Source of the DNA: Barthelona sp. PAP020
Taxonomy: Eukaryota
Assembly: GCA_040182905.1 (NCBI GenBank)
Contig: JARQWU010000024.1
Span: 1 to 64,000, forward strand
DNA: 64,000 bases
Reading direction: 5' to 3'
Under the pieces are notes generated by a model that was not told the origin of the DNA, searched no databases, and worked only from the letters and a program-made list of their open reading frames with translations. Position numbers and translations under genes: made by a program. Below are positions 29,572 through 48,607 of the stretch, piece by piece (the stretch's first letter is position 1; every line of letters begins with the position of its first letter).

Positions 29572-30138
29572 TCAAGAATTATCTTGGGTATCTGTATCTG
29601 TTTCTGTTGTGACCGTTGAATTTGTTTCAGTTGGGACAGTTAAATCATTAGGTATCATTGAATTGAATAAATTTAAGATTCTTGAAAGACCTTCTGCAGG
29701 TTGAGCCTTTTGCATTGTAATTTTCACACCATATTTGCTTGTTTGATCTGTACTTCTTTCATGATTTGATGCAGAAGAAAATTGTGTATTAAATTCAACA
29801 TTAGACGTCTTTAATGATCCTTCAGAGGTTGAACTTGTCTTATAAGTCTCAGTTGTTGCAGAAGTTACTTCCATTTGAAAATCAACAGTAAGTTCATCGA
29901 TGCTTAATGTTGGAATGTTCACAAGAGCTGCTGCGGGAACTGCAAAACTTAAACCTTTTCCATTTGGCAATTTAATTTGAAAATTTTCAGTTGTTTTTGC
30001 AAGTTCTTGAACTATTGGAACACTTGCAAGGGCTAATTCATTTTGGGCTTCTGCGGCAGCCAACAACGGTGCAGAAAATAGCTGCTTCATTGTTGTTCCA
30101 AGAACACCTTCACTAGCTGTTGATACATTATTGGCCAT
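29572..30138 (-). CDS. DUF2589-like protein (standalone)
   Basis: LFSAPLLAAAEAQ, VP...LVNIPTLSIDELTVDFQMEV, Ser/Thr-rich hairpin, RSTDQTSKY.V......PAEGLSRIL: the pattern I recognise for DUF2589. Confidence 0.8.
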   Translation of the reverse strand: MANNVSTASEGVLGTTMKQLFSAPLLAAAEAQNELALASVPIVQELAKTTENFQIKLPNGKGLSFAVPAAALVNIPTLSIDELTVDFQMEVTSATTETYKTSSTSEGSLKTSNVEFNTQFSSASNHERSTDQTSKYGVKITMQKAQPAEGLSRILNLFNSMIPNDLTVPTETNSTVTTETDTDTQDNS

Positions 30139-30379
30139 TCGATTAATTAAAAGAAATAATTAAAATTGGATGAAAATGTCACAGAAAAAAAAAAATGGTT
30201 TGATAAACAAATACCAAAATTATACAAAATCACAACCAATTATTAATTTTATAAAGTACGCATACAAATTCAACAAAAACTATCAAATTGAAAAAAAAAT
30301 TAAGATTTTTGAACAAAGAAAAATTGACCATTTTATTCATAAAAATAACCAAAAAGAAAGAAACTAATAAGAAAAGACT

Positions 30380-33300
30380 TCAAAAACGATATTCTATCCA
30401 TTTTTTTAAGCCTTTAAACAATTCTTCTGGAGATAAAAACGCTAACAACCAAAAAAAAATTTTCGTAGACCAAAAATCCTTTGCCAACAAATCAAAGCTG
30501 TCTTCAAACAAAAATAGAGTATCATGACGCAATTGTTGAACAGATTCTGCGGTTAAATTGGATTTACGAATATGCAATATGAGAATACTTGAATCAGACT
30601 TTTTTTCTTGATCAAATTCCTGTTCTTCCCAAAATTGATATTTAATTTTCCAAAATTCAAGATAATAAGCCAAAAAATTGACTTGAAAAGAAGATAAAGA
30701 TGCTTTATGTATCAATACACAGTACAAAGGGATATTTATCAAACCATTTAAGGGATTTTGAAAGGAGAATTTTTGGGTTTGACTTTCTCCTTCTAGCATA
30801 AAGCTCAAATGTTGTAAAACATAATTTTCTTTTATCCACACATCTTTGGCGGCTTTATCACTTTCATAATGTGCGGGAAGAAGTGGAGAAGCATTTGGAA
30901 TTTCAAATTGTTTTTTTTTAAAAAAGAAGGAAGGTAGCTTTTTTCTGGAAATTGTTTCAGTTGTTGAGATAATGGTAAGATGAGAATCTGGAATATCAAA
31001 AGGATCTGCGGCTTCGAATAAAATATGAAAAATCACATCAACATTTAGCGAATCATTTTTTTCAATTTCGTTCAACTCAACATCAAACAAACCACCATCT
31101 ACAGTTGAGCAAATATCGATAAGTAAACTTAAAAAATGATATAAAGTATTGAAATTAAACTTCAACTGAATGTTATACGCATCCATTGTTGGAAAAAATG
31201 TCGTTAAAAAATACAAATTCATAGCTTTGAAAATATTTTCAAATAGAACACCTGAATCGATTCTGATGACATCTGAGTAGTGCCAATTTGAAAGGGTTCT
31301 CAAAGTCTCTATGAGTTCATATGCCTTTTCAACAGTGAAACGCACAAACTTCCCTTCAATTTGATTACTTTGGTTTAAAAGAGATGATTGGAGATTCATG
31401 TGTTTATTCATTTTGATAGACAACGAATCGAATATATTATAGAGAGAATTGGTCAAAAAATTGAAATTATTCTGACAATCCTCTGGTAAAACAAGCACAT
31501 ACAGAATAGTGGGGTCCAAAGGGTTCAAATAACAAACAATACTAATGTCAAATGGCAAAATATTCTGATATAAGGATGAAACATGAATTCTTGGGGGTAA
31601 ATGGTCAGTTGAAGCCTTTGAACTTATTTCTGCCAGTTTTTTTTCAATGAAAGTCTTTTTTTGTAATAGAAAAGGAATATCCAATTTTAGAATAACATCT
31701 TGTAAATCTAACCATTGATTTGAGGGAATGCTGCATTTTTCGGTGATTTTACCAGAACTGTAGAACAAATAAGGCTCTTTGTTCAAATCAATAGAAATCA
31801 ATGAACAATATCCCTGATAGAATAAAGCTTTAAAACTTTCAAACTGTCGAGTTAGAATATCATGATTCACTTGCAATTCAGAGGCAGGAATCAACATAGC
31901 ATCTAATCTTTCTATGAAATAATAGCCCGACTCTTCATCATAAAATCGCTCAACTTCAAACTCCATTTGATATGCTCCTTGACGAGTTTGAACAATTAAC
32001 GTTGTATTTTCAGGGTTTTGATTTATAGTTCCTTCCATTAAATAAGCCTCCAAACGAATCTGTGTTTCAGGCAAAAAGTTCTCAAGAAAATCCTCTAAGA
32101 TCATCTTTTCGAGTTCAGCAGACGTTCCGTTGCTATTGAACATGTTGGTTTCAACCATTCCTGAATTCGCCAAATAAGTGAACGTGTACCCATCATAGGT
32201 TTCGGAGATTCGACTTAAATCTAAGAAATTATCTATCTTATTGGGCATTCCAATAATAGGTGTACCCAATCTCATTTGGTTGGATTTGAATTGTTTCAAA
32301 GATTTTCCAATTGTTGCGATGAGATTCAGCAGGTCATGACTATCATCACCCTTTAGAGAAGAACTTTTCAACTCAATGTTCCAAAAAACAAAGAATGAGC
32401 CACGATTCTGAAAGGGAATTATTACATACCATGACCTTTCCTTATTTTCGTTTTTGCTACGTACAAATTCATGTGATTGAACGCATATAATATTGCGGTC
32501 TTGAACCAATACTTTTTGAACAGATTTTTGTTCAATAGGCACTAATTGATAGCGTTCCAAACGATCATCCATTTTAATTACAAAAGAATTTCCAAAATTA
32601 CCAATTTTTGCAACTAACACATTCATTTCATTAATGTCCTCAAAATAATAGGGACAATTATCCTCTTCTGCACCAAAATAGAAATAGTTAATCCCATTTT
32701 TGGACCAACTCGTTGTAACTTCAGTATCAACTTCAGTGACGTCACTTGAAGAGAATTCTGAAGAAATGGATCGTCTACCTTTGCGTTCACCATTATTAAC
32801 AACGCTAGAACCAGAATGGAAACAAACTTTGATCTTTTGATGAAAACCAGTGGCAAAGACATCCAAAAATAGATTTGCTAATCTTTGAACGTGATCATGT
32901 ATACTCATGTTCTCAGAAATGAAGGTTCCTAAGAATTTCACCAAATGAGCTACAAACAATTGAGAATTCTTCTTCTTTCTTCCATTTACATCAACAAAAC
33001 ACACAAAGATATTACTATTTAATTCATTTTGATAATAACGTTGAAACATATACAATTTAATTTTCTTCAATCCATTAATGTGGGAACTCAAAAGAGAAGG
33101 TGTGGTTGTCTTACCCAAAGTACTCATTGAACTAGCATTTGAATCATCCGATATATCAACTATCTCATAAAATTCTTCCCCACACATTTGAAATTCATCG
33201 ATATCTGTTGCTGTACTATTTTTGTCTGCAAATTCTTGAACAATCTTTTCGTGCTCATTTTTTCGTGAGTCCCACAACAAAGGTTTCAAAGAATTTTCAA

Positions 33301-34345
33301 TATGCTTGTAATTTTCCAAATAACTTCTCAATTCGACGTCATAAATTGCATAAGATACTCCAGTTTTGGTTAATACTTCATAAATCATTGGATCAAACAT
33401 ATCTAAAGGTTTTAGAGTATTTCTTAAAAAAATAAAACCATGAAAAATCAAGCTTACACATACAACAAGTATAGTTATCAATATTGCTAGAATTAAATCA
33501 ACATTTTGCTGTAAGGTTGTGTTTGGATCAACTAAAGGACCAAATGTTTTCAATAAAGTCAACAGAGTTTCTATATCTTCAGAAGTAGAGATAAATTGTA
33601 ATGTGGATGAATAACTAAACATTAAATGTTCCTTCAGATCTCTGTTAGCAACTATTTCTTCATTTGCGAGCATCAACAGTGGACTTACACCAAAAGCTGT
33701 TGAATGACGAGTGGAAAATTCAAACTCATGATAAACTGAATACTCACCAATTGAATCAAAAAAAAGGCAATATTGTAACGAATTAACCAACAAATAATCA
33801 CATGCCAACCCTTTGGCAAAATGATCGATAGAATTCTCAATAGTTTGAAAATATAACACATTCTTAAATCTAGCAGAAGATGTAGAATTCAATAACGTAT
33901 CTAAATAAGTATAAACAAAATGAGATTCAATACAATAGCATAAAATACTTTCTTCAATACTCTTTGATTCTTGATATAATAATACAGGTGTTATCATCGA
34001 AATTTTATCCACATTTGTTGAACAATGACCAAAAGATTGATTGTAATTGATCATCAAATACTTATTATATGCAAAAGCTTCATTATTTAAATAATACATT
34101 AACTCTAATGGAGTGCCTATAATAATATTCTTCCCAGTAACAAGGGTTTGATTTGTAATATCAATATATTCACAAGAAAATGTTGTTTCTTCATCAAAAG
34201 TATTAAATATATTTGAAAATGTGTCAATGTTAATGTCTCTATACTCGTAATTATTAGATATCAAAATATCATATTCCTTTGTTAAAATTACACTCAATAA
34301 AATGGTAAATATAACATTATGTAATTTTAATTTAATAAAATTCAT
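30380..34345 (-). CDS. Single-pass membrane receptor-like protein with degenerate histidine-kinase/receiver-like C-terminus
   Basis: N-terminal signal peptide; one TM (LILAILITILVVCVSLIFHGFIF); C-terminal LYHFLSLLIDIC....GGLFDV, KFSFQNPL and CVLIH...FLAYYLEFW. Confidence 0.45.
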   Translation of the reverse strand: MNFIKLKLHNVIFTILLSVILTKEYDILISNNYEYRDINIDTFSNIFNTFDEETTFSCEYIDITNQTLVTGKNIIIGTPLELMYYLNNEAFAYNKYLMINYNQSFGHCSTNVDKISMITPVLLYQESKSIEESILCYCIESHFVYTYLDTLLNSTSSARFKNVLYFQTIENSIDHFAKGLACDYLLVNSLQYCLFFDSIGEYSVYHEFEFSTRHSTAFGVSPLLMLANEEIVANRDLKEHLMFSYSSTLQFISTSEDIETLLTLLKTFGPLVDPNTTLQQNVDLILAILITILVVCVSLIFHGFIFLRNTLKPLDMFDPMIYEVLTKTGVSYAIYDVELRSYLENYKHIENSLKPLLWDSRKNEHEKIVQEFADKNSTATDIDEFQMCGEEFYEIVDISDDSNASSMSTLGKTTTPSLLSSHINGLKKIKLYMFQRYYQNELNSNIFVCFVDVNGRKKKNSQLFVAHLVKFLGTFISENMSIHDHVQRLANLFLDVFATGFHQKIKVCFHSGSSVVNNGERKGRRSISSEFSSSDVTEVDTEVTTSWSKNGINYFYFGAEEDNCPYYFEDINEMNVLVAKIGNFGNSFVIKMDDRLERYQLVPIEQKSVQKVLVQDRNIICVQSHEFVRSKNENKERSWYVIIPFQNRGSFFVFWNIELKSSSLKGDDSHDLLNLIATIGKSLKQFKSNQMRLGTPIIGMPNKIDNFLDLSRISETYDGYTFTYLANSGMVETNMFNSNGTSAELEKMILEDFLENFLPETQIRLEAYLMEGTINQNPENTTLIVQTRQGAYQMEFEVERFYDEESGYYFIERLDAMLIPASELQVNHDILTRQFESFKALFYQGYCSLISIDLNKEPYLFYSSGKITEKCSIPSNQWLDLQDVILKLDIPFLLQKKTFIEKKLAEISSKASTDHLPPRIHVSSLYQNILPFDISIVCYLNPLDPTILYVLVLPEDCQNNFNFLTNSLYNIFDSLSIKMNKHMNLQSSLLNQSNQIEGKFVRFTVEKAYELIETLRTLSNWHYSDVIRIDSGVLFENIFKAMNLYFLTTFFPTMDAYNIQLKFNFNTLYHFLSLLIDICSTVDGGLFDVELNEIEKNDSLNVDVIFHILFEAADPFDIPDSHLTIISTTETISRKKLPSFFFKKKQFEIPNASPLLPAHYESDKAAKDVWIKENYVLQHLSFMLEGESQTQKFSFQNPLNGLINIPLYCVLIHKASLSSFQVNFLAYYLEFWKIKYQFWEEQEFDQEKKSDSSILILHIRKSNLTAESVQQLRHDTLFLFEDSFDLLAKDFWSTKIFFWLLAFLSPEELFKGLKKWIEYRF

Positions 34346-34627
34346 TATTCATGCTAATGAACAAAAAAAAGATCAGTTGAACAATTTTTTTCAGTTTTTT
34401 ATTCTTTCAAAAATCTTGTTTCAACATCTTTAAAATTCATTCAACATATTTATTTTCTTTTAAAAATTATATATTTAAAATCTTACATTGAAATAATGAA
34501 ACATAAGGAAGATCTCCCAGATACTGACTCAAATTCACTTCATCCTTACCTTTCTTCAAAACCAATTGTTCATATTAACTAAAAGAAACTTTCAAATACA
34601 GATTATAAAAACAAATACATGACATTT

Positions 34628-35503
34628 TTACAAATAATATGAAGATTTGTTTGACGATGCAAAACGAGGTTTTCTGAAAGGTGATGATGAAACAAAAGAA
34701 TATTCACTAAAGTTACAATTTGAAGGTTCAGTCCATTCAGGAATTGAGGAAATATCTCCAATAACATGTTCAGGATGTAGTTGACAAAAAGATGCCAATC
34801 CTCCTTTCAATATCGCTACTCTCATAAAACCTTGATCAAATAACCAATTTGCCATCTCTATTGCGTCATTATTATATATTTCATAAATAACAACAATACC
34901 ATCACCTTCTGAATCACAGCGCTCCTTGAATTTATACAATTCATTTGTCAGCGCGTTTTGGGCTCTTGACATTCTACTCTTTGGGAAACATCTTGAACTA
35001 ATAATGTGACAACTTTGCCATTCAGCAGGAGAACGAATGTCCAATAAAATATATTTACATTTATTGAGTCTTTCTAGCTCTAAATCATCCGAAATAATTT
35101 TTGTTTCATCATTAGTGTGTGAAATAGATACATCTGAAAAATTAATCGAAGATGAATGCATTTTCACACGATTTTTTTGCATCGCATTACCTTCAATTTT
35201 ATTTGAAGGTTCAAAACTATGTTTTACTAAATTTTTTTGTGAGGCTTTCTTATATTTTTTAGGTAAGGGTGCATCTACATCTAAAGGTCTTTCTTCAGCT
35301 TCAATATTGATCCAATCACTCAAAATTGATTCATTCAGTGTCTTATACTTTAATTGTTGTTTTTTTACAACATTTCGGCGATGTTCAGGATTATTCTCAT
35401 AAAAACTACGTTTTGATGCGCCAGTATCAATTTTTGATCGTATTTTAGAAAAAGGTTTAGATTTTGGAAGTTTTCCATAGCTATTTGACGTCAAAAACGA
35501 CAT
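34628..35503 (-). CDS. CEP41: Rhodanese-domain centrosomal protein CEP41-like
   Basis: KIRSKIDTGAS; YILLDIR...WQSCHIISS...MSRAQN...ELYKFK...IVVIY...GF..VAILKGGL. Confidence 0.75.
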   Translation of the reverse strand: MSFLTSNSYGKLPKSKPFSKIRSKIDTGASKRSFYENNPEHRRNVVKKQQLKYKTLNESILSDWINIEAEERPLDVDAPLPKKYKKASQKNLVKHSFEPSNKIEGNAMQKNRVKMHSSSINFSDVSISHTNDETKIISDDLELERLNKCKYILLDIRSPAEWQSCHIISSRCFPKSRMSRAQNALTNELYKFKERCDSEGDGIVVIYEIYNNDAIEMANWLFDQGFMRVAILKGGLASFCQLHPEHVIGDISSIPEWTEPSNCNFSEYSFVSSSPFRKPRFASSNKSSYYL

Positions 35504-35674
35504 AGTTTTAAAGAAAAAAAAAAGGGGACTTTTTTCATTGTCGAAAATAATTACTTTCTATCATTTCAACAGGGCAAAATTGTTATGAATAACAAAGTCG
35601 AACATTAAAAACAAAAATTAACTATCAAAGTTTATCTGTAGGTAAAAAGGAAAACATACAATTCAAGCAAGATT

Positions 35675-37543
35675 TTATTGTGAACAAGCTTCTTCTCTCA
35701 TTTCTTGAATTTCTTTTTGATATATGTGTTCCAAAACTCTTCTTCTCTTCTTTTGAGTAGCTGTTAATTCCCCATTATCAGCACTTAACTCCCTTGTTTT
35801 GATACGTATCACACTAATACGTTCATAACTTTTCAATTCTTTTTCTTTCCAAACTCTGTTCAATTCAGCTAATATCTCCTCTTCTGTTGGTGTACCAATA
35901 CACCATACAAAAGCTCCTAAAGCAGAACCCAAGCACAAGATCCAAATATCCAATATTGAAGAAACATTCTTGTAAACATTCTCCAAATGGGCTGGATGAA
36001 TGTATTCTCCTTGGGAGTTCTTTATTATGCCACTCTTTCGATCGATAATCTTGATACTACCAGAGGGTAACAATTCAACAATATCATTGGTTTTAAACCA
36101 GCCTTCGTCATCTAGAACTTCTTTAGTCTTTTCGGGAAGGTTCCAATAACCTTTAAAGATGGTAGGACCTCGTACAACAAATTCACCCCTAGGATTAGGC
36201 TTATCCAAAGGAGAATAACCAAATTCTGGGACTTCATCAAGCCTATATTCTAATTCTTCATAAACAGGACCAATAGTACCAGTTTCTAATGAATTAGGGA
36301 ACTGTGCACTCAAACATGAGCAATTTTCAGACATTCCATATCCTTCAATAACATCAAATCCTAATATACCAGTACAAAAACGACGAACTTCAGGTGATAA
36401 AGAAGCACTCCCACTAAACAAACAACGAATTCTTCCTCCAAAAGCTTCACGAATTTTCTCAAAAATAATCTTATCCCAAATAGGGGTTGACCTTAAATGG
36501 CCTGTTGTGGAATCATTTTTAGAGTTCTTAGCCCAGTTGAACAACCATCTGGTTATCATACCTTTAGATTGGATTGTGTCCAGAACATTTGCTTGGAATT
36601 TCTCCAACACTCGAGGAACAGCAATCATGAACGAAGGATGAAGTGTCTGTAGATCACTGGCTAGCATTGTAATCGAACCAGAAAAGAAACCAATCAAATG
36701 GCCATGTGCGATCACCAAATGCATGGCAGTTCTTTCAAAAACATGAGCCATAGGTAGATATGAATAATAGATATCTCTTTTGAATTCGGGAGGAAATGGA
36801 ACCAATCTTGAATTCAAAATACATAACGCAGATAACAAGTTTCGATGGGTGATCATTGCCCCTTTCGGCGATCCGGTCGTTCCTGATGTATAAACCAATG
36901 TACAAATGTCATCAGAATCAGCAAGATCAGGAAGTCCCATCAGAAGATTCTCATGCTCTTGTGACATTTCAATTAATTCGGAAACAAGGGAATCATAATT
37001 TAGCCCAGTTGCAGAAACCAATAAACTCTCCCAAGGATAAATGTCCATCACGAATATCTTTTCTAAAGTTGAAAGGGTAGGAAAAACAGTATTACAAAGT
37101 TCCAATTTTTTAGGAGAACAAAAAATAAATTTAGCTCCTGAATCTTGTAAAATAAATTGAACAGCATCAGCGTTGATATTTGTATAAATAGGTACTGTAA
37201 TCACACCCAATCTTTGACATGCCAGATCGACAATGACCCAAAAATAAGAATTAGTGCTCAAAATTGCCACACGATCCCCCTTAACAAGACCAAGCTTTTC
37301 CAATGATAAACTGAGACTTCCAACATCACATAAAACTTGTTTGAAGGACAAAAATTCATATTCTCCATATTCATCATCCTCGTGCATTCTAGTTCGCCAT
37401 CCCATAAATGGATTATCAAGTAAGTCATGACATGTATAGGAAAATGAACTATATAAAGTTCTTCGGTGTTCTAAAACATGTAAACATGATCCATTCTCAG
37501 GAAAATCCTTCGTATGGCATTGTAAGCAATCAAGATGCGCCAT
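35675..37543 (-). CDS. Long-chain acyl-CoA synthetase (ACSL)
   Basis: YTSGTTGSPKG, YSYLPMAHVFER, EGYGMSE, RGPTIFKGYW, IIDRK. Likely ATG at 37543 after a T-tract. Confidence 0.95.
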   Translation of the reverse strand: MAHLDCLQCHTKDFPENGSCLHVLEHRRTLYSSFSYTCHDLLDNPFMGWRTRMHEDDEYGEYEFLSFKQVLCDVGSLSLSLEKLGLVKGDRVAILSTNSYFWVIVDLACQRLGVITVPIYTNINADAVQFILQDSGAKFIFCSPKKLELCNTVFPTLSTLEKIFVMDIYPWESLLVSATGLNYDSLVSELIEMSQEHENLLMGLPDLADSDDICTLVYTSGTTGSPKGAMITHRNLLSALCILNSRLVPFPPEFKRDIYYSYLPMAHVFERTAMHLVIAHGHLIGFFSGSITMLASDLQTLHPSFMIAVPRVLEKFQANVLDTIQSKGMITRWLFNWAKNSKNDSTTGHLRSTPIWDKIIFEKIREAFGGRIRCLFSGSASLSPEVRRFCTGILGFDVIEGYGMSENCSCLSAQFPNSLETGTIGPVYEELEYRLDEVPEFGYSPLDKPNPRGEFVVRGPTIFKGYWNLPEKTKEVLDDEGWFKTNDIVELLPSGSIKIIDRKSGIIKNSQGEYIHPAHLENVYKNVSSILDIWILCLGSALGAFVWCIGTPTEEEILAELNRVWKEKELKSYERISVIRIKTRELSADNGELTATQKKRRRVLEHIYQKEIQEMREEACSQ

Positions 37544-37681
37544 CAAAAAAAAAAAATTAAAATAAGGCATATATTTAATTTTGATTGATTTTTTTTCTCT
37601 TTCTTTGTTTTGAGATAAAAATTGAAGAACTTTACCATTATTTTCATATAAAGATGAAGAATTAAACATAAAAAGAAAAAT

Positions 37682-38698
37682 TTATATTTTTACCCAAATT
37701 GCATCCACCTCATCAGTGCGATATCTTTGTGTAACAGTAATATCAGAAACGGTTTCACATTTAATATCCTTTTCAAACATCAATAATCCATTATAAGCAA
37801 TCATTGCTCCATTATCAATACAAAAACGATCATCCATTGTTCCAATGGTAATACCTCGATCTTCAGCCATTAAACTCATCATTTCTTGAAGTCTTAAATT
37901 GCATCCTACACCTCCTACAATCAAGACACTGTCTGCATTAATATGTGAAATAGCTCTCTCAGTAACCTCAATTAACATTGCAAACATGGTCTCCTGCATT
38001 GACATGCATAAATCTTCCCTTGTTATTTCTCCATTTCTGTATTCTTTTGAATCAATATATGTTTGTGCTGTTGCTAGTTGACCTCCAAACGCCAGATCCA
38101 TACCCTTTACCGAATATGGAAATTTCAAAAAACGTTTTCCATTCTTTGCCAATTGTTCAATATTATAACCAGGTGTTGGATCATTGGAAATATCAACAAT
38201 ACGAGCAAATTTATCCAAAGTATTTCCAATTGCAACGTCAATAGTCTCCCCAAAAATCCTGTATCTTCCATTTGCAAAGCTAATCACTTGTGTATTTCCT
38301 CCAGAAACATACAAACAGACAGGATTTTTAACTAAAGTACATAATTTCCCCATTTCCACATGAGCAATGCAATGATTAACAGGAATTGCAGGAATATTCC
38401 AAAGTTGGGATAACATCCGAACAACAACTGCTGTAACATGCAAACAACTACCCATACCTGGTCCTTTGGTGTAGGCAATGGCATCTAGTTGTTCTGGTGT
38501 TACCTTTGCTTCTTTCATGGATTGTTCTAAAATAGTAAAAATATAATTTCGATGGTGTAAAGCAGTATCTATTGGAATAAAACCATGTCCTTTAGGTGGA
38601 ATATAAGTTTTTCGAACATTGGACAAAATATTACCTTTTTCATCAACAATTCCTATTCCAATTTTGTTTGCACTACTTTCAAATCCAATTACTAACAT
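37682..38698 (-). CDS. KAE1: tRNA N6-threonylcarbamoyltransferase Kae1/OSGEP
   Basis: GFESSANKIGIG, YTKGPGMG, VNHCIAHVEMG, LYVSGGNTQ, IDNGAMIA, TQRYRTDEV. Confidence 0.97.
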   Translation of the reverse strand: MLVIGFESSANKIGIGIVDEKGNILSNVRKTYIPPKGHGFIPIDTALHHRNYIFTILEQSMKEAKVTPEQLDAIAYTKGPGMGSCLHVTAVVVRMLSQLWNIPAIPVNHCIAHVEMGKLCTLVKNPVCLYVSGGNTQVISFANGRYRIFGETIDVAIGNTLDKFARIVDISNDPTPGYNIEQLAKNGKRFLKFPYSVKGMDLAFGGQLATAQTYIDSKEYRNGEITREDLCMSMQETMFAMLIEVTERAISHINADSVLIVGGVGCNLRLQEMMSLMAEDRGITIGTMDDRFCIDNGAMIAYNGLLMFEKDIKCETVSDITVTQRYRTDEVDAIWVKI

Positions 38699-38745
38699 AT
38701 CAAGTAAAAAAAATGAAAAATTTCGATCCAATACTTTTGTTTTTT

Positions 38746-40362
38746 ATGAAATTTGTTGCATTGGTTAGTGGAGGAAAAGATAGTCTATTTGCAATATTTA
38801 AAGCAATTGAAGCTGGAAATGAATTAGTTTGTTTGGCGAATATTCATCCAGAAGAAGATATTGATGAATTGGACAGCTGGATGTATCAATCAGTTGGTTG
38901 GAATTGTATTGATTATATTGCAGAAGCTCTAGATTGTCCTTTATATACCATTACAACCAAAGGAAAAGCCATATGTGGACACAATGAATATGTACCTAAA
39001 AGTGGTGATGAAATTGAAGATATGTATGAGTTAATAAAAGTTTGTTTGTTAAATCATCCTGAAATCAATTCTGTATGCGCAGGACCCGTTATATCACATT
39101 ATCAACGATTGAGGGTTGAAAATATTGCAGCTAGATTAAATTTGGTACCTTTAGCTTATTTATGGGAATATGATCAGACCAAATTGTTGGAGGAAATGTT
39201 TGAGACTGGTCATGAAAGCTTATTGATAAAATTAGGATCTGCTGGATTTAAAAGCAGGCATTTAGGACAAACATTATCTCAATCTTTTCCTTTATTAAAA
39301 AAATTGCAAAAGCAATGGGGAATGCAAATATCCGGTGAAGGTGGTGAATATGAAACACTGTGCATACAAAGTCCTTTGTTCAACAAATATTTACATTTGA
39401 AAGCCTATGAAACAATAGTAACAGCTGAGGATGACTTGACTTGTACTGCATTCATGAAAATTACAGATTGTGGATTGGAATCCCATTCAAATGAAGTTTT
39501 GTGTTCAAAGAACGATAGCTTACACATAGGGGTTAATCATAACCTTTATGTTAATAACAGTGTTCTTGAAGGATTTAAACTCTGTGAAAATTGTTCTAAA
39601 AACCGAATTGAATTGGATATTGAACAGTGTGAGGATAAACTAGCAGTCATGATTCCCATTTTTTTGCCTTGTGAAAAATGCAAAGTCAAGTGTCTCAAAT
39701 TTTTAAATTCTGTCTTTGGTGATGTTGACTTTGATAATGATGCGATTGGATTATTTTGCGGTCTATTGACATTTAGAAATTCCACGTTGGAAACTCCAAT
39801 GTTTTCTAAGTTCATTCTGCCCAATTTAACACAATTTTCAAAATTAAATCTAGTCTACAACCTTTTCTTTCCAACTCAACCTCCTGCAAGAGCTTGTGTT
39901 GGTATTTCCAATAAAGATAAAAAAGAAATTTCTTTAAAACTGATCATTTCTCCCCATAAAAGAAGAGTGTTACATGTCCAGTCTATATCACATTGGGCAC
40001 CAGCATGTATTGGCCCCTATGCTCAATCAAACTACACTGATGATTTTGCAATTATTTCCGGTCAAATTGGTCTTGTTCCTGGAACAATGACCTTGGCTTC
40101 TTCAATTGAACAACAAATATCTCAAGCATTTGAAAACGTAAAAGCAGTCATGAAAAGCATAAATGTTGATGAGACTCAACTTATTCTTCTTAACATATAT
40201 TATACTGAAGATGAAGTCTTTCAATTGATCAGTAATAGGTTTGATCATCTCAATCCAAACTTTATTAAAGTAAATCAACTGCCTATCAATGCCAAAGTTG
40301 AAATTGAAACTTGGTTTTCGAAAGAAAGTTTAAATGAAAAATTAGTCAATCTATTCAAATAA
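38746..40362 (+). CDS. DPH6: Diphthine-ammonia ligase Dph6 with C-terminal RidA/YjgF domains
   Basis: MKFVALVSGGKDS, ELDSWMYQSVG, YQRLRVE, GEGGEYET, LHVQSISHWAPACIGPYAQ, ISGQIGL. Confidence 0.95.
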   Translation: MKFVALVSGGKDSLFAIFKAIEAGNELVCLANIHPEEDIDELDSWMYQSVGWNCIDYIAEALDCPLYTITTKGKAICGHNEYVPKSGDEIEDMYELIKVCLLNHPEINSVCAGPVISHYQRLRVENIAARLNLVPLAYLWEYDQTKLLEEMFETGHESLLIKLGSAGFKSRHLGQTLSQSFPLLKKLQKQWGMQISGEGGEYETLCIQSPLFNKYLHLKAYETIVTAEDDLTCTAFMKITDCGLESHSNEVLCSKNDSLHIGVNHNLYVNNSVLEGFKLCENCSKNRIELDIEQCEDKLAVMIPIFLPCEKCKVKCLKFLNSVFGDVDFDNDAIGLFCGLLTFRNSTLETPMFSKFILPNLTQFSKLNLVYNLFFPTQPPARACVGISNKDKKEISLKLIISPHKRRVLHVQSISHWAPACIGPYAQSNYTDDFAIISGQIGLVPGTMTLASSIEQQISQAFENVKAVMKSINVDETQLILLNIYYTEDEVFQLISNRFDHLNPNFIKVNQLPINAKVEIETWFSKESLNEKLVNLFK

Positions 40363-40817
40363 ATCATTTATGAAAATATAATTTTTTATTGAATCAAACA
40401 TTTTTCCCTTACATCTAAAAAAAAACAAGAAAGTGAAGGGTGAGGGTTGAAAACTTTTTCTGATAAAAATCTTCCAATTTATCACAATGTGAACCCAAAA
40501 AGAGAAATGAAACAAAAACAAAAATTCTTTTCAAAAGAAAATTTTCAATGTGTTAGAATCTTGTTTCTTTTGAAAAAAAAATTCTATTTTTTAATCTCAA
40601 TGAAATTGAAATTGTATGTGCAAATCCACAAAAAGAGAATTCTCCAAACTTCCAATTGAAAAAATTTTTTCTTATTTTTTGTTTATCTTGATTTTATGAA
40701 TATCTAAAAAATTTTTAAATGATTCATAAGTTGATGAAAATATATATCTGAAATAGGAGAAAAAAAAAAATTTATCTCCTGTAAAAATTTTTATCATTTC
40801 GTTTTACATATTTTCAA

Positions 40818-43409
40818 ATGTCCAGTGGTTCATTTGGCCGTTTAGCTGCTTCTCGTTCTAAGATTAGAGGACCTTCTCCTGGTTCTCTGAGTGCTTCACC
40901 TATCCTTGCCCAAGAATTGATGCAAAAGGAATCTTTTTCTCAAAAATCCGATATTCAAAAGTTATTTACCTATAACTTGAAGTATATTTTAAATCGTGAT
41001 GCTGATTCATTGGATAATTGGGCTGCTTTTATGGCAACTGCTTTTGCAGTTCGTACTAGGTTACTTGATGATTGGAATAGAACCCAAAAAGCCATTGAAA
41101 AGAAGAAAGCTAAAACTATCAATTATTTATCATTAGAATGGTTAATGGGGCGTGCACTTCAAAACAGTTTATTAAACACTGAACTTTTGCCTAAATTCAG
41201 AACCGCTCTCATGGACTTTTCATGTGATTTGGAAAGAATTGCTGATGAAGAACATGATGCTGCTTTAGGTAATGGTGGTCTTGGACGTCTTGCTGCCTGT
41301 TTCATTGATTCTATGGCCACACTTTCTTTGCCTGCTTGGGGTTATGGTCTTCGTTACACATATGGTATGTTCCGTCAAAAAATTGAAAATGGTTATCAAA
41401 TTGAAATCCCCGAATATTGGTTAACATATGGTAATCCTTGGGAAGTTAAGCGTCTTGATGTTAGTTACACAATTTCTTTTGGTGGTCATGTTACTCGCAC
41501 AATGAATGCTGATGGAAAGTGGAAATTCAGTTGGGAAGGAACTGATCAAGTCACAGCTGTTGCTTATGATACTCTTGTTCCTGGTTATAAGACTGGATGC
41601 TGTTTAAATATTCGTCTTTGGGCTGCTAGACCCGTAAAAGAGTTTGATTTACAATCTTTCTCTCAAGGAGACTACTATGCTCAAGTAGCTTTACGTCAAG
41701 ATTCTGAAAATCTTACTTCTGTTCTTTATCCCAACGATAACACATATGCCGGTAAGTGTTTGCGTTTGAAACAAGAATATTTCTTTGTTTCTGCTACTCT
41801 TCGTGATATTCTTGATCGGTTCAAAAAGGTTAACGCTCCTATTACTGATCTTCATAAGTTCCAAACCATTCAACTTAACGATACTCATCCTGCATTGGGT
41901 GTTCCTGAACTTATGCGTATTCTTCTTGATGAGATGAATTTAGAATGGTCTGTTGCTTGGGATATCACTAAGAAAACTTTCAATTACACAAATCATACAG
42001 TTCTTCCTGAAGCTCTTGAAAAATGGCCTGTTCCTATGTTTGAACAAATCTTACCTCGTCATTTAGAAATCATTTACGAAATTAACCATCAACACCTTCA
42101 ACAAGTTCGTGCATTGTATTCTGATAATCTTTCAAAACTCCGTTCATTATCTATTATTGATGAAAGTGGTCCTCGTTATGTACGTATGGGACATTTGAGT
42201 TGTGTTGGTTCTTCTCATATCAATGGTGTTGCTGCTATTCACACTGAAATTGTTAAATCTCGTGTTTTTGCTGATTTCTATCAAATGGATCCTGAAAAAT
42301 TCCAAAATAAAACTAACGGTGTTACTCCTAGAAGATGGGTTAAGCTTTCTAACCCCAGATTGAGTGCTGTTTTGACTCGTAAGTTAGGTTCTAACTCATG
42401 GATTAAAGATTTGTCTTTAATTAAAAAATTAGAAAAATTCGCTGATGATGCTGAAACTCAAAATATCTTCAGAATGGTCAAAAAGGATAACAAGGATCGT
42501 TTAGCTGCTTATATTAAAGCTAATCTTGACATTGATGTCAATCCTGAATCTCTCTTTGATATTCAAGTTAAGCGTATTCACGAATACAAGCGTCAACTCT
42601 TAAATTGTTTAGGTACTATTCATCAATATCTTTCTATTAAGGGTATGACTGCTGAACAAAAGAAAAATGTCGTTCCTCGTGTTACTATCATTGGTGGTAA
42701 AGCTGCATCAGGTTATGATATGGCCAAACGTATCATCAAATTGATTAATTCGATTGCTGAAGTCGTTAATGTTGACCCTGATGTTGGTGACCTTTTAAAG
42801 GTTGTGTACATTCCCAACTATTGTGTTTCAAATGCTGAGCTTATTATTCCTGCTTCTGATATTTCTGAACACATTTCTTTAGCTGGTACTGAGGCTTCTG
42901 GTACTGGTAACATGAAATTCGTCATGAACGGAGGTCTTCTTTGTGGTACTGATGATGGGGCTAATATTGAAATTTGTGAAGAGTGTGATTATTCAAATCA
43001 TTTTATCTTTGGTTTAAGAACTGATGAAATTGATGACGCTTTCCATAGACAAGCTATTGGAGAAATTCCCACTGATCCTAGACTTCAAAAAGTCTTTGAT
43101 GCTGTACTTTCAGGAATGTTTGGTCATGTTGACGTTTTTGCCCCTATTATTGCTGCTATTACTGGTGCTGAAGACAGATATCTTGTGAAAGCTGATTTCC
43201 CCGCCTATTTAGAAATTTGGGATCAAATTGATTCTTCTTATAGAAATCAAGCAGAATGGGCCAAAAAGTGTATTTTGTCTGTTGCCAGAATGAGCAAATT
43301 CTCTTCTGATCGTACCATTAGTGAGTATGCACAAGATATTTGGGCCATTGAACCTGTTGATGTTCCTACCGATGATATCAAGGATGTTGCTGTTTCTCCT
43401 TCTTCTTAA
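40818..43409 (+). CDS. Glycogen/starch phosphorylase
   Basis: DAALGNGGLGRLAACF, IQLNDTHP, YTNHTVLPEALE, KTNGVTPRRW, EASGTGNMKF (PLP lysine), FSSDRTI. Confidence 0.98.
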   Translation: MSSGSFGRLAASRSKIRGPSPGSLSASPILAQELMQKESFSQKSDIQKLFTYNLKYILNRDADSLDNWAAFMATAFAVRTRLLDDWNRTQKAIEKKKAKTINYLSLEWLMGRALQNSLLNTELLPKFRTALMDFSCDLERIADEEHDAALGNGGLGRLAACFIDSMATLSLPAWGYGLRYTYGMFRQKIENGYQIEIPEYWLTYGNPWEVKRLDVSYTISFGGHVTRTMNADGKWKFSWEGTDQVTAVAYDTLVPGYKTGCCLNIRLWAARPVKEFDLQSFSQGDYYAQVALRQDSENLTSVLYPNDNTYAGKCLRLKQEYFFVSATLRDILDRFKKVNAPITDLHKFQTIQLNDTHPALGVPELMRILLDEMNLEWSVAWDITKKTFNYTNHTVLPEALEKWPVPMFEQILPRHLEIIYEINHQHLQQVRALYSDNLSKLRSLSIIDESGPRYVRMGHLSCVGSSHINGVAAIHTEIVKSRVFADFYQMDPEKFQNKTNGVTPRRWVKLSNPRLSAVLTRKLGSNSWIKDLSLIKKLEKFADDAETQNIFRMVKKDNKDRLAAYIKANLDIDVNPESLFDIQVKRIHEYKRQLLNCLGTIHQYLSIKGMTAEQKKNVVPRVTIIGGKAASGYDMAKRIIKLINSIAEVVNVDPDVGDLLKVVYIPNYCVSNAELIIPASDISEHISLAGTEASGTGNMKFVMNGGLLCGTDDGANIEICEECDYSNHFIFGLRTDEIDDAFHRQAIGEIPTDPRLQKVFDAVLSGMFGHVDVFAPIIAAITGAEDRYLVKADFPAYLEIWDQIDSSYRNQAEWAKKCILSVARMSKFSSDRTISEYAQDIWAIEPVDVPTDDIKDVAVSPSS

Positions 43410-43504
43410 ATATTCCTTTTGCGTTGTTGAACTTTTTTACAGAAAATAAATAGTTATTTGCTTAAATTTTGGTTAAAATAAAAGAATTATTTTTTTATTT
43501 AATA

Positions 43505-46500
43505 TCAGTCACTTACTTTAGCGACCAATTTTTGTTCCAATCTGGCTAACCCTTCACTTGGTTCTTGAGCTTTGAATCCAATATGAATTTTAGTTGACCT
43601 TGAATCCTTTCCTTCATATTGAGAAGAATTTTGAATATCCACTCCCAAAGAATAACTTTCCTCTCCCTCTTTTGTTTTTTGATATCTACCACTAGATAGG
43701 GCCATTTGCAAATCCAATTCAACTTCATCAACAACCAAATTCTTGTTTGATACCATTGACATCAAAGGAACATTGATTTGACGATTCTCAAGACTAAAAT
43801 CATCAGTATCTGCATTTCTATTTGCTTGATCAACACTTAAAGATACTTGTTTTGGTCTGTAAGCAACAACATCGGTTAATTCCCACTTTTCTAATTGTTC
43901 TTCTGACATTCTATCCATCAAAGAAATCATTCTTTCCAAATTAGACAGCTGAGCTGACCGTTGACTATCCAATACTGATTGATAGATAGCTGTCAACATA
44001 CCATCAAAAGCAGAAATTGGTTGAATTTGTTCGATTGAATCAGATTCAACAACAACATCTTTTTTATTGGCATTTGTGAAAGAATCAAGCATATTATCCA
44101 CACTATTTTGGACATTATCAACATCAAATTCATTTTTCTTCTCTTTAACTTCTTCTTCCTTCTTTTCAAGAACATCTTTGTTAATTTTTTCAATAAAACT
44201 AATTGTTACACCATAAAGATTATTATTGAAAGAATTGGATATTGCCACAATCCATGAGAGAATATACATCAATAATACAATATAAAAATATGCTCTACTG
44301 ATAGTTTGGAAATTTTCTCCATATTGTTCTGAAGTTAAATAAATAGATGAAGGGTTTAAATAAGTATCTTGAGATTTGACCAAAAACAACGTCCCAACAA
44401 ATTCACTAATGAAGGTTATAGTCATGGTTATAACGTAAGCTGTTTTATCAGTTAAGACGATACCTAATATGAATGAAACAATGTACAACAAAGTGGCAAT
44501 ACCTCTAATTATTGTACCAAAAGACATATAGAGTCCTAAATCCATGTTCAAAAAGAAAGAAGTAAACACAAAAGGCAGTAAGCCCGTAAATCCTTTGATG
44601 AACAAAAAGAAGACAGAAGCAAAGGATTGAGATTGTTTTATAGAATGAATAGTGTTTACCAAATGAGGTTGGTCAAAATATGATATTCCAAACAAAATCT
44701 TATATGTCGAATTCATCAATTCATAATCCTGATCATGTTTCCTTGCTTTAAAATTATCAAAATTACTTTCATTTTCAAGATCTGGTGATAAACAATTATA
44801 TGAAGGAACAAAGAAAATCAAGGCAACGGCTTGAATGATCAAATATATTAACTGAAGAATATTATCAATCTTGTAATAACGGACATCGCTCAAACATTGA
44901 GCATCTCCCGAATCCAAAGAACTTAAAGATAACAGGAGGGTAATCATAACCAAGAAGAAAGTCAAAATAAAAGCAGATCTGAACAGTAATACTCTTTGTT
45001 CTTTATTCAATATCGCCTTTTCCCATTCTTTATCCAAAAATTTAACAGTAGTTCGTTGTTCCTCAAATATATATTTTTGTTTCTCAAAATCACGAATCAA
45101 TGTGGAGAGACATAAATCCCTCGAATATTTATCCAAAATATTACAATTCCAAGTGTCAACTAAATACTTTTCATATTCTTTCAAAGTTTCCAAATCATTA
45201 TCTTCGTATATGATTTTATGACTGGCTTTATCTTCAGCACTGTACAAAACTTGGTTTGTCCTTTCAATACTGACCCAATGTCTAACTTTATCCAACTTTT
45301 GTCCATATATATTACTAATTCTATAATCAGCAACAGTATGTCTAACGCTAGAATTCAATTCTTCCACAAAAAGCTTTTCTCCTAACATATGCAAATTAGT
45401 CTCGGGACATTTATACATGAAAATTAAATCATGCTCAGATAAATTGAATGAAGGGTCTTTTTTCTTTGCTTTGATCAAATCTTTTTGGAATTCCTTCGTT
45501 TTTAAAAGATCTTGTAAGGCCTTTTCATAATACTTTTTGAACTCTGGTGACATTTCTTCATATGATAGCAATTTATCAGCAAATTCTCTCATACTCTTCA
45601 AATCTTGTTGATATATATTGTCATCACTGTATGTTCTTTCATATCCTTGGAAGATTTCACCCAAAATAACCTTTAATATTTCATTTTTATTATAAATATT
45701 GATTTGTGAAACTATTCCTTCCTCATACTTTCCAATTAACTCATTTAATTCGTGAGTTTCATTGTGAATCGATTCAATCTGCCCATATTCATAAAATCTG
45801 AGTATCATGCGCAGATAACGCTCTAATTCATTAACTTCATTGAATCTATTTCCTAATTGACTTAAAAGGTCATCAAGTTCAAATATGTTTTCATTCGCTG
45901 AATCTAAATTTTCAGATTTCAAATGCAACAATCCTTGATGTTTTAAATACTTGCTGAACGTGTCATAAAACATATCCATGTATTCTATTCTATTTAATAA
46001 TGTGAAAGAATGGTCACTTTTCAATAATGAAAAGAATTCAAGATAATTTCTCAAACTTCTGAGCATCAAAGGACACTTGGCAAAATAAGTGTTAAATATT
46101 TTATTCTTATCATACAAACGGAAAAAGAAATCTCGCAAATTTTCTTTTTCTTCATCGTTCATTTCTTCAGTCATTCTCATCAATTCAATTCTAACACAAC
46201 CATTCTCATCCAATCCATCAGGAATCAAATATCTATCAGCCAAGTGCAACACGTTATCTATTGTAATAAGTGCATCCAACTTTCCTTGATAGTGAAACAA
46301 CAAATCAGTGAACATATGAGATAATACATTACCCAAGTAAGTATCTTCATCGTTATCAACAGAACCAATATTATCTATCAATCTGGAACGAATCAATTGC
46401 AGTTCAGCAAGAGAGAGTTCTTCCATATCTGCTAAACATGATTTGATTTCATCCAACACATCAATTTTGAAATGATTCACAGAATTTAAATCTCCTTTTT

Positions 46501-48607
46501 TCGTTTGAGACATTTTGGTGATAAATTCCTCAATAGTCAAATCTGTTCCATCATTTGTAACATACAAACTAACAATGTCCTTGACTAATTGAATGGGGGA
46601 ATCAATAGCCATCTTTTCTTTGATAAATTGCTGAATTTCAACATTATATCCTTCTGTATATAACAACAAATACATATCATCAACAAAATCACTGATGAAT
46701 TCTGTTCTTTTAACATTGTCCTTCATAAATCTGACATCTTCATAGAAAAATAAACATTCATGCAATAAATCAAAGATATGAATTTCAACTTCATCATTCA
46801 TAATGTCCAACATGTTGCTCTTAATGTTATTATACAAATCATCAACACATTTAAACTTCATGCGATCGTCTGTTCCGTCTGCACTAACATTAAAGAAAAA
46901 ATAGTGCAAAATGTGCTTAACCAAGAATTCAGTAAACAGTTGTTTTTGCTCATTCACTTGTTTTGACAAAGCAGAAGGAAAATGCAACAAATTCAAATTC
47001 TGATGATTCAAATCTTGGAATTTTTCTTGATAATACATGAATTTATGGAAAATTTTACTGAATATCTCATTCATACGCTGTTTTTCAAGGGAAATTTGTC
47101 GTTCTGCAAGAACACCTTCTCTATATATAGTTTCAACATATCTGTAACTGGATATATAAGGAATTGTACCTAAAAGTCCAAACAACGCTCCAGACACTTG
47201 TAAAAACAACCTGATCATGTTAAACATGGTAATGGGACATGATGAATTAACTCCAAAGAAGTCAAAAATTGCAACAAATAAAATTAAAAAATTAACAATT
47301 ATCAACAGATAAGATTGATAATGGCTATCCTTTATTTGACACCTGAATGGAACAACGTGATTTTCACTAAATGTTGAGTGCAATTCTAACAATAACTCTT
47401 GTAATTCTGAACTTGAAAAAACAGAAAAACCAAAAAGGTTGTTAACACTGATTGGTGGAATTTTATAAGGAGTATCTGCCTTACAATATACCAATTGAGC
47501 GATAAACTCTTCATCAGATCTAAATTTAGACTTAGTTTCAAACTTTTTGGCACCTGGATAATTATACAATCCAACAACAACAATAGCGTCAATAGAATTT
47601 TCTTCATCACCATTTATATCATTAGCAGTATAACCAATCAATCTTGACTTAATACCAGATCTCAAATAATTGATAAAACCAATCATGAAAACAAAAAGCA
47701 GGAAAAAAGTGAACACAGTGAAAAACCAGCTTGAGTTAAGGCTACTTAAAGAAAAATCTGTTGCTTTATCATAAATATCAAACCCATTTTTGGCACAAGT
47801 GAGAACCAAAAAGAAAAATGCAGTGAATAATGAATATTTAAATATTTTGACGTGTAAAATCAGATCGTAGTACGACTTTAATATCAGACAATCAGGAGGT
47901 GATAAAACAGAATTAGTTTGAAACTTGTTCTTCAAACATTGCCTGTAATTAGGCCTTCTATTGGCAACAGGTACAGGATTTAAATCATCTGTGCTTGTTT
48001 CTTCCTCACTTTGAGATATATTACTGTCATTGTCCCCTCTTTCTTGTTTAAAATAATCAGTATCTTTATTTTGGGCAACATCATCAAACTCTACAGGTAA
48101 AACATCCATAGGTTCCGATGGTAGAATACCAAAGAGTGAAACAGCCATACCTAAAAATAAACAGAATAAATATCCAAGAAAAAATATATGAGAATAACCT
48201 AAATCAGAAAAATTGACAAGATATTGTTCTATTTGTGTCATACATACAAATAAACTTAAGACAAAAACGATTAACATAAATCCAGGTGACTTTTTCAATC
48301 TTTCACGTTTATCACTAATATTAAAAACATCACTTTCATCATCTCCACATATATATCCAAAATTTAGATCTTTTCTCAACTTAAACGAATATTTTAACTT
48401 AAATCCATCCGAAATAGCCGCTTTAGTCATTTCGGATTCCTCAAATTTTTTCCTTTTTTTAAAATATGAACTAACATATTCATCAAAGTCCAATTCTTTT
48501 TTCATAGTCGCAACACTTTGGTTTTTGAGTGATGATTGGGCAGTTTGCATCATAATACTTTGTTGCCGAAACATACCTTGTCTCTGCTCCGATTCAGGAG
48601 AAGACAT
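43505..48607 (-). CDS. Polytopic membrane protein with C-terminal DUF2589-like domain
   Basis: Two clusters of hydrophobic helices flank a ~700-aa helical region. The last ~170 aa read FDGMLTAIYQSVLDSQ...VPLMSMV...L.VDEVELDLQM...KIHIGFKAQEPSEGLARL. Confidence 0.75.
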   Translation of the reverse strand: MSSPESEQRQGMFRQQSIMMQTAQSSLKNQSVATMKKELDFDEYVSSYFKKRKKFEESEMTKAAISDGFKLKYSFKLRKDLNFGYICGDDESDVFNISDKRERLKKSPGFMLIVFVLSLFVCMTQIEQYLVNFSDLGYSHIFFLGYLFCLFLGMAVSLFGILPSEPMDVLPVEFDDVAQNKDTDYFKQERGDNDSNISQSEEETSTDDLNPVPVANRRPNYRQCLKNKFQTNSVLSPPDCLILKSYYDLILHVKIFKYSLFTAFFFLVLTCAKNGFDIYDKATDFSLSSLNSSWFFTVFTFFLLFVFMIGFINYLRSGIKSRLIGYTANDINGDEENSIDAIVVVGLYNYPGAKKFETKSKFRSDEEFIAQLVYCKADTPYKIPPISVNNLFGFSVFSSSELQELLLELHSTFSENHVVPFRCQIKDSHYQSYLLIIVNFLILFVAIFDFFGVNSSCPITMFNMIRLFLQVSGALFGLLGTIPYISSYRYVETIYREGVLAERQISLEKQRMNEIFSKIFHKFMYYQEKFQDLNHQNLNLLHFPSALSKQVNEQKQLFTEFLVKHILHYFFFNVSADGTDDRMKFKCVDDLYNNIKSNMLDIMNDEVEIHIFDLLHECLFFYEDVRFMKDNVKRTEFISDFVDDMYLLLYTEGYNVEIQQFIKEKMAIDSPIQLVKDIVSLYVTNDGTDLTIEEFITKMSQTKKGDLNSVNHFKIDVLDEIKSCLADMEELSLAELQLIRSRLIDNIGSVDNDEDTYLGNVLSHMFTDLLFHYQGKLDALITIDNVLHLADRYLIPDGLDENGCVRIELMRMTEEMNDEEKENLRDFFFRLYDKNKIFNTYFAKCPLMLRSLRNYLEFFSLLKSDHSFTLLNRIEYMDMFYDTFSKYLKHQGLLHLKSENLDSANENIFELDDLLSQLGNRFNEVNELERYLRMILRFYEYGQIESIHNETHELNELIGKYEEGIVSQINIYNKNEILKVILGEIFQGYERTYSDDNIYQQDLKSMREFADKLLSYEEMSPEFKKYYEKALQDLLKTKEFQKDLIKAKKKDPSFNLSEHDLIFMYKCPETNLHMLGEKLFVEELNSSVRHTVADYRISNIYGQKLDKVRHWVSIERTNQVLYSAEDKASHKIIYEDNDLETLKEYEKYLVDTWNCNILDKYSRDLCLSTLIRDFEKQKYIFEEQRTTVKFLDKEWEKAILNKEQRVLLFRSAFILTFFLVMITLLLSLSSLDSGDAQCLSDVRYYKIDNILQLIYLIIQAVALIFFVPSYNCLSPDLENESNFDNFKARKHDQDYELMNSTYKILFGISYFDQPHLVNTIHSIKQSQSFASVFFLFIKGFTGLLPFVFTSFFLNMDLGLYMSFGTIIRGIATLLYIVSFILGIVLTDKTAYVITMTITFISEFVGTLFLVKSQDTYLNPSSIYLTSEQYGENFQTISRAYFYIVLLMYILSWIVAISNSFNNNLYGVTISFIEKINKDVLEKKEEEVKEKKNEFDVDNVQNSVDNMLDSFTNANKKDVVVESDSIEQIQPISAFDGMLTAIYQSVLDSQRSAQLSNLERMISLMDRMSEEQLEKWELTDVVAYRPKQVSLSVDQANRNADTDDFSLENRQINVPLMSMVSNKNLVVDEVELDLQMALSSGRYQKTKEGEESYSLGVDIQNSSQYEGKDSRSTKIHIGFKAQEPSEGLARLEQKLVAKVSD

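Follow-up and report, generated by a model that had tools for sequence, protein, structure and literature searches.

DUF2589 subtypes A and B in the protist Barthelona, with subtype B as the tail of a polytopic membrane protein

Why would a protist keep both members of a gene pair otherwise met in prokaryotes and viruses, and carry one of them on a large membrane protein? The question is raised by positions 1 to 64,000 of contig JARQWU010000024.1 (hereafter the window, the whole stretch that was analysed) of Barthelona sp. PAP020, which the available part of PMC11316075 describes as a free-living, bacterivorous, anaerobic metamonad. The window encodes a free protein of 188 amino acids (aa), here called A, and a 1700-aa polytopic protein that ends in a domain here called the B tail. 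A preliminary description, made from the sequence alone, proposed that both belong to DUF2589, an uncharacterised family, and form a heteromeric scaffold, filament or pore. The locus is a real and new variant within this family. We tentatively favour, at slightly less than even confidence, a laterally acquired A/B pair in which A and the B tails likely form a cytosolic ring that clusters or braces membrane proteins and does not pierce the membrane.

Two DUF2589 subtypes at one protist locus

The family assignment was checked with the Pfam DUF2589 hidden Markov model (PF11655, curated cut-off 23 bits), which matched the 188-aa protein with 76.5 bits over aa 17–160 and the 1700-aa protein with 41.7 bits over aa 1544–1695. 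The shared skeleton that had been described by eye is also present. The motifs LLAAAEAQ / YQSVLDSQ and KAQPAEGLSRI / KAQEPSEGLARL were found in the two translations, and direct BLASTP aligned A with the B tail at 26% identity over 88 aa (expect value, E, 3e-7). Their similarity has a z of 7.4, a score reached by none of 300 local shuffles, and profile–profile comparison of the A-subtype and B-subtype alignments gave a probability of 98.5 (E 3e-15, 168 columns). Scored with subtype profiles that themselves include the window proteins, the 188-aa protein reached 139.6 bits with the A-profile and 42.4 bits with the B-profile. Subtype profiles, trees and alignments place one subtype A gene and one subtype B gene at the locus, and no further DUF2589 copy was found in the window by subtype profiles or by a hydropathy and translation scan. 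A is intact, retaining near-invariant residues of the family such as P24, Q32, P68, P76 and F87, and has neither a signal peptide nor a membrane helix by hydropathy. Its sequence is present letter for letter in EukProt.

One partner is indeed tethered to a membrane protein, as had been proposed. Twelve hydrophobic segments, in two blocks of six, precede the B tail by hydropathy (Table 1), and the same architecture is carried by P0006, a complete EukProt transcript protein of Barthelona sp. PAP020 that is 99.8% identical across 1700 aa. P0005, a second EukProt protein of this species marked as a complete open reading frame (ORF), is 96.8% identical to the 1700-aa protein; of the 52 positions that differ, 49 fall within the first 259 aa and three beyond. 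This distribution suggests that P0005 may be a second allele, or else a third copy of recent origin, in which the N-terminal part has been swapped.

The loops between the hydrophobic segments measure 10–28 aa on one side of the membrane and mostly 60–730 aa on the other, counting both termini. Because short loops alternate with mostly long ones, both termini are predicted to lie on the same side, and the B domain is likely cytosolic, together with the N-terminus. A lacks a signal peptide, therefore the tail and A are predicted to share the cytosol. N-glycosylation sequons, two in outer loops and 11 in inner loops, were left unused as topology evidence. The middle and membrane parts have no match, to a channel or transporter family or to any other, in Pfam, NCBIfam or PHROG; the middle domain has none in PADLOC either, and aa 1180–1500 has none in Atlas. 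No repeat was detected between the two membrane blocks (z = −0.5).

A phmmer search with aa 501–1700 against 1.84 billion representatives, a library whose coverage of other barthelonid or skoliomonad proteomes is not established, returned two matches, the isoform and P0014, both from the same species. P0014 is a 703-aa paralogue in which the hydropathy scan marks seven hydrophobic segments ahead of a B tail (33.8 bits with PF11655). The B domains of P0014 and the window protein are sisters (support 100/99) yet only 30% identical, which indicates that the membrane-plus-B architecture is old and kept. Because this unlinked paralogue exists, A does not necessarily pair with the product of the gene next to it. 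A search for longer B fusions returned the self isoform alone among 7,991 scored candidates, a weak result because the known P0014 was missed.

The host attribution also stands, given the near-identical Barthelona transcript proteins and the eukaryote-type genes identified in the window by Pfam (HECT ligase, UFC1, DEAD-box helicase, papain, protein kinase, Ras-family GTPase and V-ATPase E). The window is gene-dense, has about 30% guanine plus cytosine (GC) and is free of N. The GC content at third codon positions (GC3) of the two DUF2589 genes is 0.18 and 0.27, and 22 window ORFs span 0.18–0.27; codon adaptation of both genes lies inside the range of the same ORFs. Because a complete transcript carries the fusion, A is exact in EukProt, and GC3 and codon adaptation are host-like, contamination or a false gene fusion is an unlikely source of the two genes.

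The prokaryotic and viral pair and the origin of the protist genes

Outside Barthelona, the family matches in the searches made here were prokaryotic and viral only. We sampled the best 80 of 122 GTDB loci, a set biased towards relatives of the query, together with 43 viral loci and at least 46 metagenome loci. Subtypes A and B lie within 3 kb of each other in 77/80 GTDB, 34/46 listed metagenome and 40/43 viral loci, 151 of 169 in total; the remaining 18 are truncated by contig ends, with a gene at most 665 bp from the locus end in each. A first, smaller profile had found the pairing in 76 of the 80 GTDB loci. All 151 pairs are on one strand, and no complete locus with a single subtype was present among the prokaryotic and viral loci fetched. 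The two subtypes are thus kept as neighbours in prokaryotes and phages, as the preliminary description had stated. B is upstream of A in 96 of the 151 pairs, including the nearest complete loci (L106, L108, L151 and L152).

The family is patchy. It was matched in 4/401 Bacillota, 5/301 Desulfobacterota-side and 10/401 Pseudomonadota genomes, the centre genome included each time, and the largest open frame in these samples was at most 314 aa. In the Pseudomonadota sample, which was drawn evenly, nine of the ten matching genomes had two or more adjacent matches. No membrane helix was found in 168 B ORFs, the longest of 358 aa, or in 201 A ORFs from the prokaryotic and viral loci, counts into which overlapping loci entered more than once. 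Examples in the available parts of published work are AF0414–AF0417 of Archaeoglobus fulgidus, an A/B case (PMC3949148), and BF9343_2744 of Bacteroides fragilis (PMC11402942). Full-text literature, taken as main texts outside subscription, held passing mentions of DUF2589 in expression data only and no mention of PF11655; in the part of PMC11316075 available, which concerns Barthelona, no mention of DUF2589 was seen.

Two further components accompany many of these pairs. A small gene, C, encodes about 90 strongly conserved aa (for example L038:6028–6300) with no Pfam or NCBIfam match, and is present in 78/80 GTDB, 3/46 listed metagenome and 0/43 viral loci. Marine phage-like contigs carry the pair without this third gene, which argues that A plus B is the minimal unit. 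In 61/80 GTDB loci the pair adjoins a gene for a cell-wall hydrolase or peptidoglycan-binding enzyme, and six families are represented. Three sequence clusters (GH19, GH108 and peptidoglycan-binding), scanned by one member each, account for 56 of these, and the other five (amidase, muramidase, lysozyme) came from 45 scanned ORFs out of 83 candidates in the remaining 24 loci. None of the 62 hydrolase ORFs, whose start sites were called mechanically, has a hydrophobic N-terminal stretch.

An alternating hydrophobic face with an aromatic tip is the pattern of membrane-spanning hairpins in beta pore formers. In most prokaryotic and phage A proteins the hairpin has both features, with a length of 40–46 residues and a tip such as GWGPF. 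Together with the cell-wall hydrolases beside the pair, this amphipathic hairpin suggests that the prokaryotic pair is a membrane-breaching ring.

Individual loci showed other contexts. In Vibrio aquimaris (L001, 2676–12337) the pair sits inside an R-body cluster with five RebB-domain matches, two PatG-domain proteins, an eCIS-core protein, an AAA ATPase and an AraC-type regulator. A general R-body link was rejected, because the reb genes that flank the pair in this locus are not among the 45 widest neighbour clusters. An anti-phage defence role was also rejected (no PADLOC match in six proteins), as was a structural role in phages (neither A nor B has a PHROG match). In Lachnoclostridium, A and gene C are separated by a protein of 508 aa (L008:4973–6496) that carries a TcdA/TcdB-type glycosyltransferase domain, adjoins an amidase and resembles toxin-type cargo. 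In the marine phage-like contigs L114, L120, L142, L146 and many of the viral loci L157–L174, A and B directly follow genes that by eye are ribonucleotide-reductase-like, and gene C is absent. Two small hydrophobic proteins flank the pair in phage loci L175:5679–7202 and L187:4065–7174 in a lysis-cassette-like arrangement, with a lysozyme near in L187. A third, shortened or broken A copy precedes the pair at L074:5876–6373 and L141:3767–4360, one of them from Phascolarctobacterium.

Protist A nests among prokaryotic A proteins. With its close relatives it lies in an 8-row branch (98/93) in a 67-row tree and forms a 5-row branch (96/89) in a hand-picked 40-row tree built without the hairpin. 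One relative, P0003, is named as a Sphaerochaetaceae protein, and the closest relative shares 35–38% identity. Of the phylogeny proposed earlier, the A half gave this placement and the B half gave no settled one, as discussed below. Lateral transfer is the likely source of the A/B pair, and one event for both genes is possible.

The two genes are 13,367 bp apart on the minus strand with six genes between them, in agreement with the distance of about 13 kb among eukaryote-type genes first reported. Scaled to the 13.2-Mb genome of Barthelona sp. PAP020 (PMC11316075, table 1, from the part available), the chance of a gap this small is 0.2% for one A and one B, and 0.6% for three B. The proposal that this proximity is not coincidental is therefore favoured for one to three B copies and tempered by at least one unlinked membrane-plus-B paralogue, P0014. 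B upstream of A on one strand is also the commonest prokaryotic order, a weak sign when taken alone. We infer that the spacing may be what remains of an original B-then-A operon.

Predicted folds and competing readings

In the AlphaFold model, A starts with a long helix, continues through a short hairpin and two long strands, and closes with another helix, with a predicted local distance difference test score (pLDDT) of 66, below 50 at the hairpin tip, and a predicted template modelling score (pTM) of 0.41. The monomer model is extended and is therefore as expected of an oligomer subunit. The B tail has an A-like outline, with pLDDT mostly 82–90 over most of the domain and the hairpin region folded back. 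In the model of aa 990–1700 the membrane part is of low confidence, and its helices 7–12 matched generic bundles alone (best Z 9.4, root-mean-square deviation (rmsd) 4.1, 108 aligned).

Fold searches did not connect either model to a known structure. Foldseek gave no PDB match at E 0.001 for A or for aa 990–1700, and in the weak rows for A the matched parts were long hairpins from proteins that form rings (phage collars, FliF, aerolysin, lysenin), reflecting the hairpin only. Comparison with aerolysin-type folds likewise gave only non-significant hairpin matches (E at least 0.45, TM-score below 0.2). Nothing exceeded background in VIA searches with the same two models; the best row for A had Z 4.1, rmsd 3.2 and 55 aligned, to an unrelated helical protein. 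A viral structure search returned two significant rows, neither named, and sequence searches of the PDB gave 0, 0 and 1 irrelevant match, with no solved DUF2589 structure found. Prediction of an A plus B-tail complex, run without alignments or folded controls, scored 0.07 against a mark of 0.34 and is counted neither way.

The hairpin distinguishes protist A from most of its prokaryotic counterparts. It has 36 residues, lacks the aromatic tip and shows the alternating hydrophobic face on its second strand only. Its lipid-facing hydrophobicity is 0.94 against a median of 2.42, fifth-lowest of the 63 rows compared after 11 of 74 were dropped with an unparsed pattern. The four lower rows (P0002, P0003, P0004 and L107) are also the nearest relatives of protist A, thus the hydrophobic tip was probably lost before the transfer. 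Because the branch of protist A has no hydrophobic tip, a free pore is less likely. Of the scaffold, filament or pore first suggested, the pore is accordingly weakened, and a heteromeric assembly remains a deduction from the prokaryotic pairing.

The cytosolic ring that we favour would have arisen as follows. In the ancestral prokaryotic pair, A and B would form a mixed ring whose A hairpins could enter the membrane from the cytoplasm, in step with the signal-less cell-wall hydrolases; a membrane-breaching role of this ancestor may thus be envisaged. The protist version would be tip-less, a cytosolic ring anchored to the membrane through the fused helices, in which free A and the B tails cluster or brace orphan multi-pass membrane proteins. 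Gene pairing, retention and shape point to the A-B partnership and to a mixed ring, the wall of which may be a beta-barrel. The prokaryotic pairing, one intact gene per subtype, host-like codon use and a transcript-backed fusion repeated in P0014 all favour this reading, as do the B-first order on one strand, the predicted cytosolic side of both parts, the extended monomer model and the low hydrophobicity of the A hairpin.

Several observations weigh against it. A and the fusion gene are separated by 13.4 kb and six genes, and the chance of such a gap rises to about 10% with five A and ten B copies. The fused B tails could pair among themselves and leave A dispensable. Neither gene C, although present in nearly all GTDB loci, nor a cell-wall hydrolase was found in the window by Pfam and profile search. 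The branch of protist A is long, and the protist B domains are unplaced, as a quick tree and a 38-row tree disagree. A grouping of protist B with the B partners of the A-nearest loci is absent from the B tree and only not rejected (approximately unbiased test, p = 0.25), and no B partner was recovered for the tip-less prokaryotic A proteins. The window protein and P0014 have colinear membrane parts whose similarity is not significant against shuffles (z = 1.1).

Many of these points suit an explanation in which the two halves have parted, which we regard as possible though unlikely. The B tail would be a borrowed self-association domain, A would act alone or be a relic, and the spacing would reflect a shared insertion site or chance. 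Against one known A there are two or more B fusions, the window protein and P0014 with P0005 as a possible third, six genes intervene, the placement of B in the trees is unsettled, and A has a reduced hairpin on a long branch. However, complete loci with a single subtype are absent among those fetched, and A is intact, keeps its near-invariant residues and is present in EukProt.

A bolder version of the ring, in which a phage or bacterial membrane-breaching module became a membrane complex, with orphan polytopic proteins assembled and perhaps gated by a DUF2589 beta-barrel collar and A obligate, we consider improbable. Also quite improbable is a tethered two-part pore, in which the membrane protein would be a platform whose B tail recruits A, and the hairpins would open a membrane, for instance that of food vacuoles, or gate a 12-helix channel. 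The long amphipathic hairpin with an aromatic tip in most prokaryotic A proteins and the signal-less hydrolases or peptidoglycan-binding enzymes of the 61 GTDB loci would fit such a pore, and CDCL toxins are a known case in which one subunit acts as a platform and recruits the pore subunit (PMC11169675, in the part available). The short, tip-less hairpin of protist A, with its single alternating strand, argues against it, as does the lack of a hydrolase gene in the window by Pfam. An artefact, whether from contaminating bacteria, chimeric assembly or a wrongly fused gene, to which the otherwise prokaryotic and viral distribution might point, is extremely unlikely given the eukaryote-type neighbours, matching GC and codon use, the absence of N, the transcript that reproduces the fusion, the second paralogue built alike and the distance of A from its closest relative.

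The six genes between A and the fusion gene are host genes outside the module. They encode a 1321-aa membrane protein without assignment, a rhodanese-domain protein, an AMP-binding enzyme, Kae1/TsaD, a diphthamide synthase and glycogen phosphorylase. The 1321-aa protein (30380–34345, minus strand) lies directly upstream of the A gene, is also in EukProt and is an orphan with no Pfam match. It has an N-terminal hydrophobic segment and another membrane helix near aa 290–310, and its C-terminal end resembles, by eye, what we take to be a worn receiver-type domain. Two more long orphan ORFs without a Pfam match lie on the minus strand at 18398–23968 (1856 aa) and 55108–62952 (2614 aa).

Table 1. 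Coordinates of the DUF2589 locus in the window
Feature	Position	Strand	Basis
DUF2589 subtype A gene, free 188-aa protein	29572..30138	-	ORF call, Pfam, subtype profile, EukProt, hydropathy
Ser/Thr-rich beta-hairpin of A, aa 92-127, 36 residues	29758..29865	-	AlphaFold strands 82-102 and 123-143, hydrophobicity comparison
Six host genes between A and fusion gene, outside the module	30380..43409	.	ORF list, translations, Pfam
Polytopic membrane protein, 1700 aa, with DUF2589 subtype B tail	43505..48607	-	ORF call, complete transcript protein P0006
DUF2589 subtype B domain, aa 1544-1695	43523..43978	-	Pfam 41.7 bits, AlphaFold, loop-length alternation
Second block, six predicted membrane helices, aa 1213-1457	44237..44971	-	Hydropathy; colinear with P0014 membrane block
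Middle domain of about 730 aa between membrane blocks, aa 483-1212	44972..47161	-	No family match; helical in modelled part (aa 990 on)
First block, six predicted membrane helices, aa 108-482	47162..48286	-	Hydropathy

Comparison with known systems

DUF2589 is patchy in bacteria, archaea and phages, and neither a solved structure nor a fold match nor a paper on its function came up in our searches. A protist that keeps both partners, with B joined to membrane proteins in two divergent paralogues, lends support from evolution, and independently, to a role at membranes and to cooperation of the subtypes. It also provides a natural contrast between prokaryotic pairs with a hydrophobic tip and a tip-less, tethered pair. 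If the ring is correct, it would represent a new way of assembling eukaryotic membrane proteins, derived from a laterally acquired lysis-associated module; if the collar is correct, the fusion would be a natural link tying DUF2589 to membranes.

The closest known system is the prokaryotic DUF2589 cassette, with which the protist locus shares both subtypes, a single strand, B upstream of A, the core motifs and the predicted fold. The protist genes are 13,367 bp apart, whereas the prokaryotic and viral ones lie within 3 kb in 151/169 loci. Prokaryotic B is a stand-alone, helix-free protein of at most 358 aa, in contrast to the tails of 1700-aa and 703-aa membrane proteins seen here, and the prokaryotic A hairpin of 40–46 residues with an aromatic tip corresponds to 36 residues and no hydrophobic tip. 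Gene C and the hydrolase accompany many prokaryotic pairs and are both missing from the window; C is missing from the viral loci as well (0/43).

Holins have membrane helices, and metamonads are not known to have peptidoglycan. Membrane helices are absent from A and B of DUF2589 and the protist locus has no hydrolase, unlike holin and hydrolase cassettes and type 10 secretion (PMC13284979, in the part available), although prokaryotic DUF2589 likewise lies beside signal-less hydrolases, of six interchangeable families. Protist A differs from aerolysin-type beta pore-forming toxins by the lack of a membrane-spanning amphipathic hairpin. The CDCL-L/CDCL-S toxins, as presented in the available part of PMC11169675, differ in several respects: DUF2589 is about 160 aa with no CDC/MACPF match and no export signal, the protist anchor is polytopic and comes from the same cell, and the protist A hairpin is not membrane-like.

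In its working the protist pair may resemble SPFH rings or, with lower probability, the platform and pore of CDCL toxins. The protist proteins have no SPFH/Band 7 Pfam match and no such entry appeared among the fold-search rows, therefore on present evidence they do not appear to be SPFH members. The likeness would be one of organisation: as with HflK–HflC, flotillins and prohibitins (10.1101/2025.04.21.649849; PMC12005517, in the parts available), A and the B tails, two paralogous subunits, would form a single ring against the membrane and organise the proteins in it.

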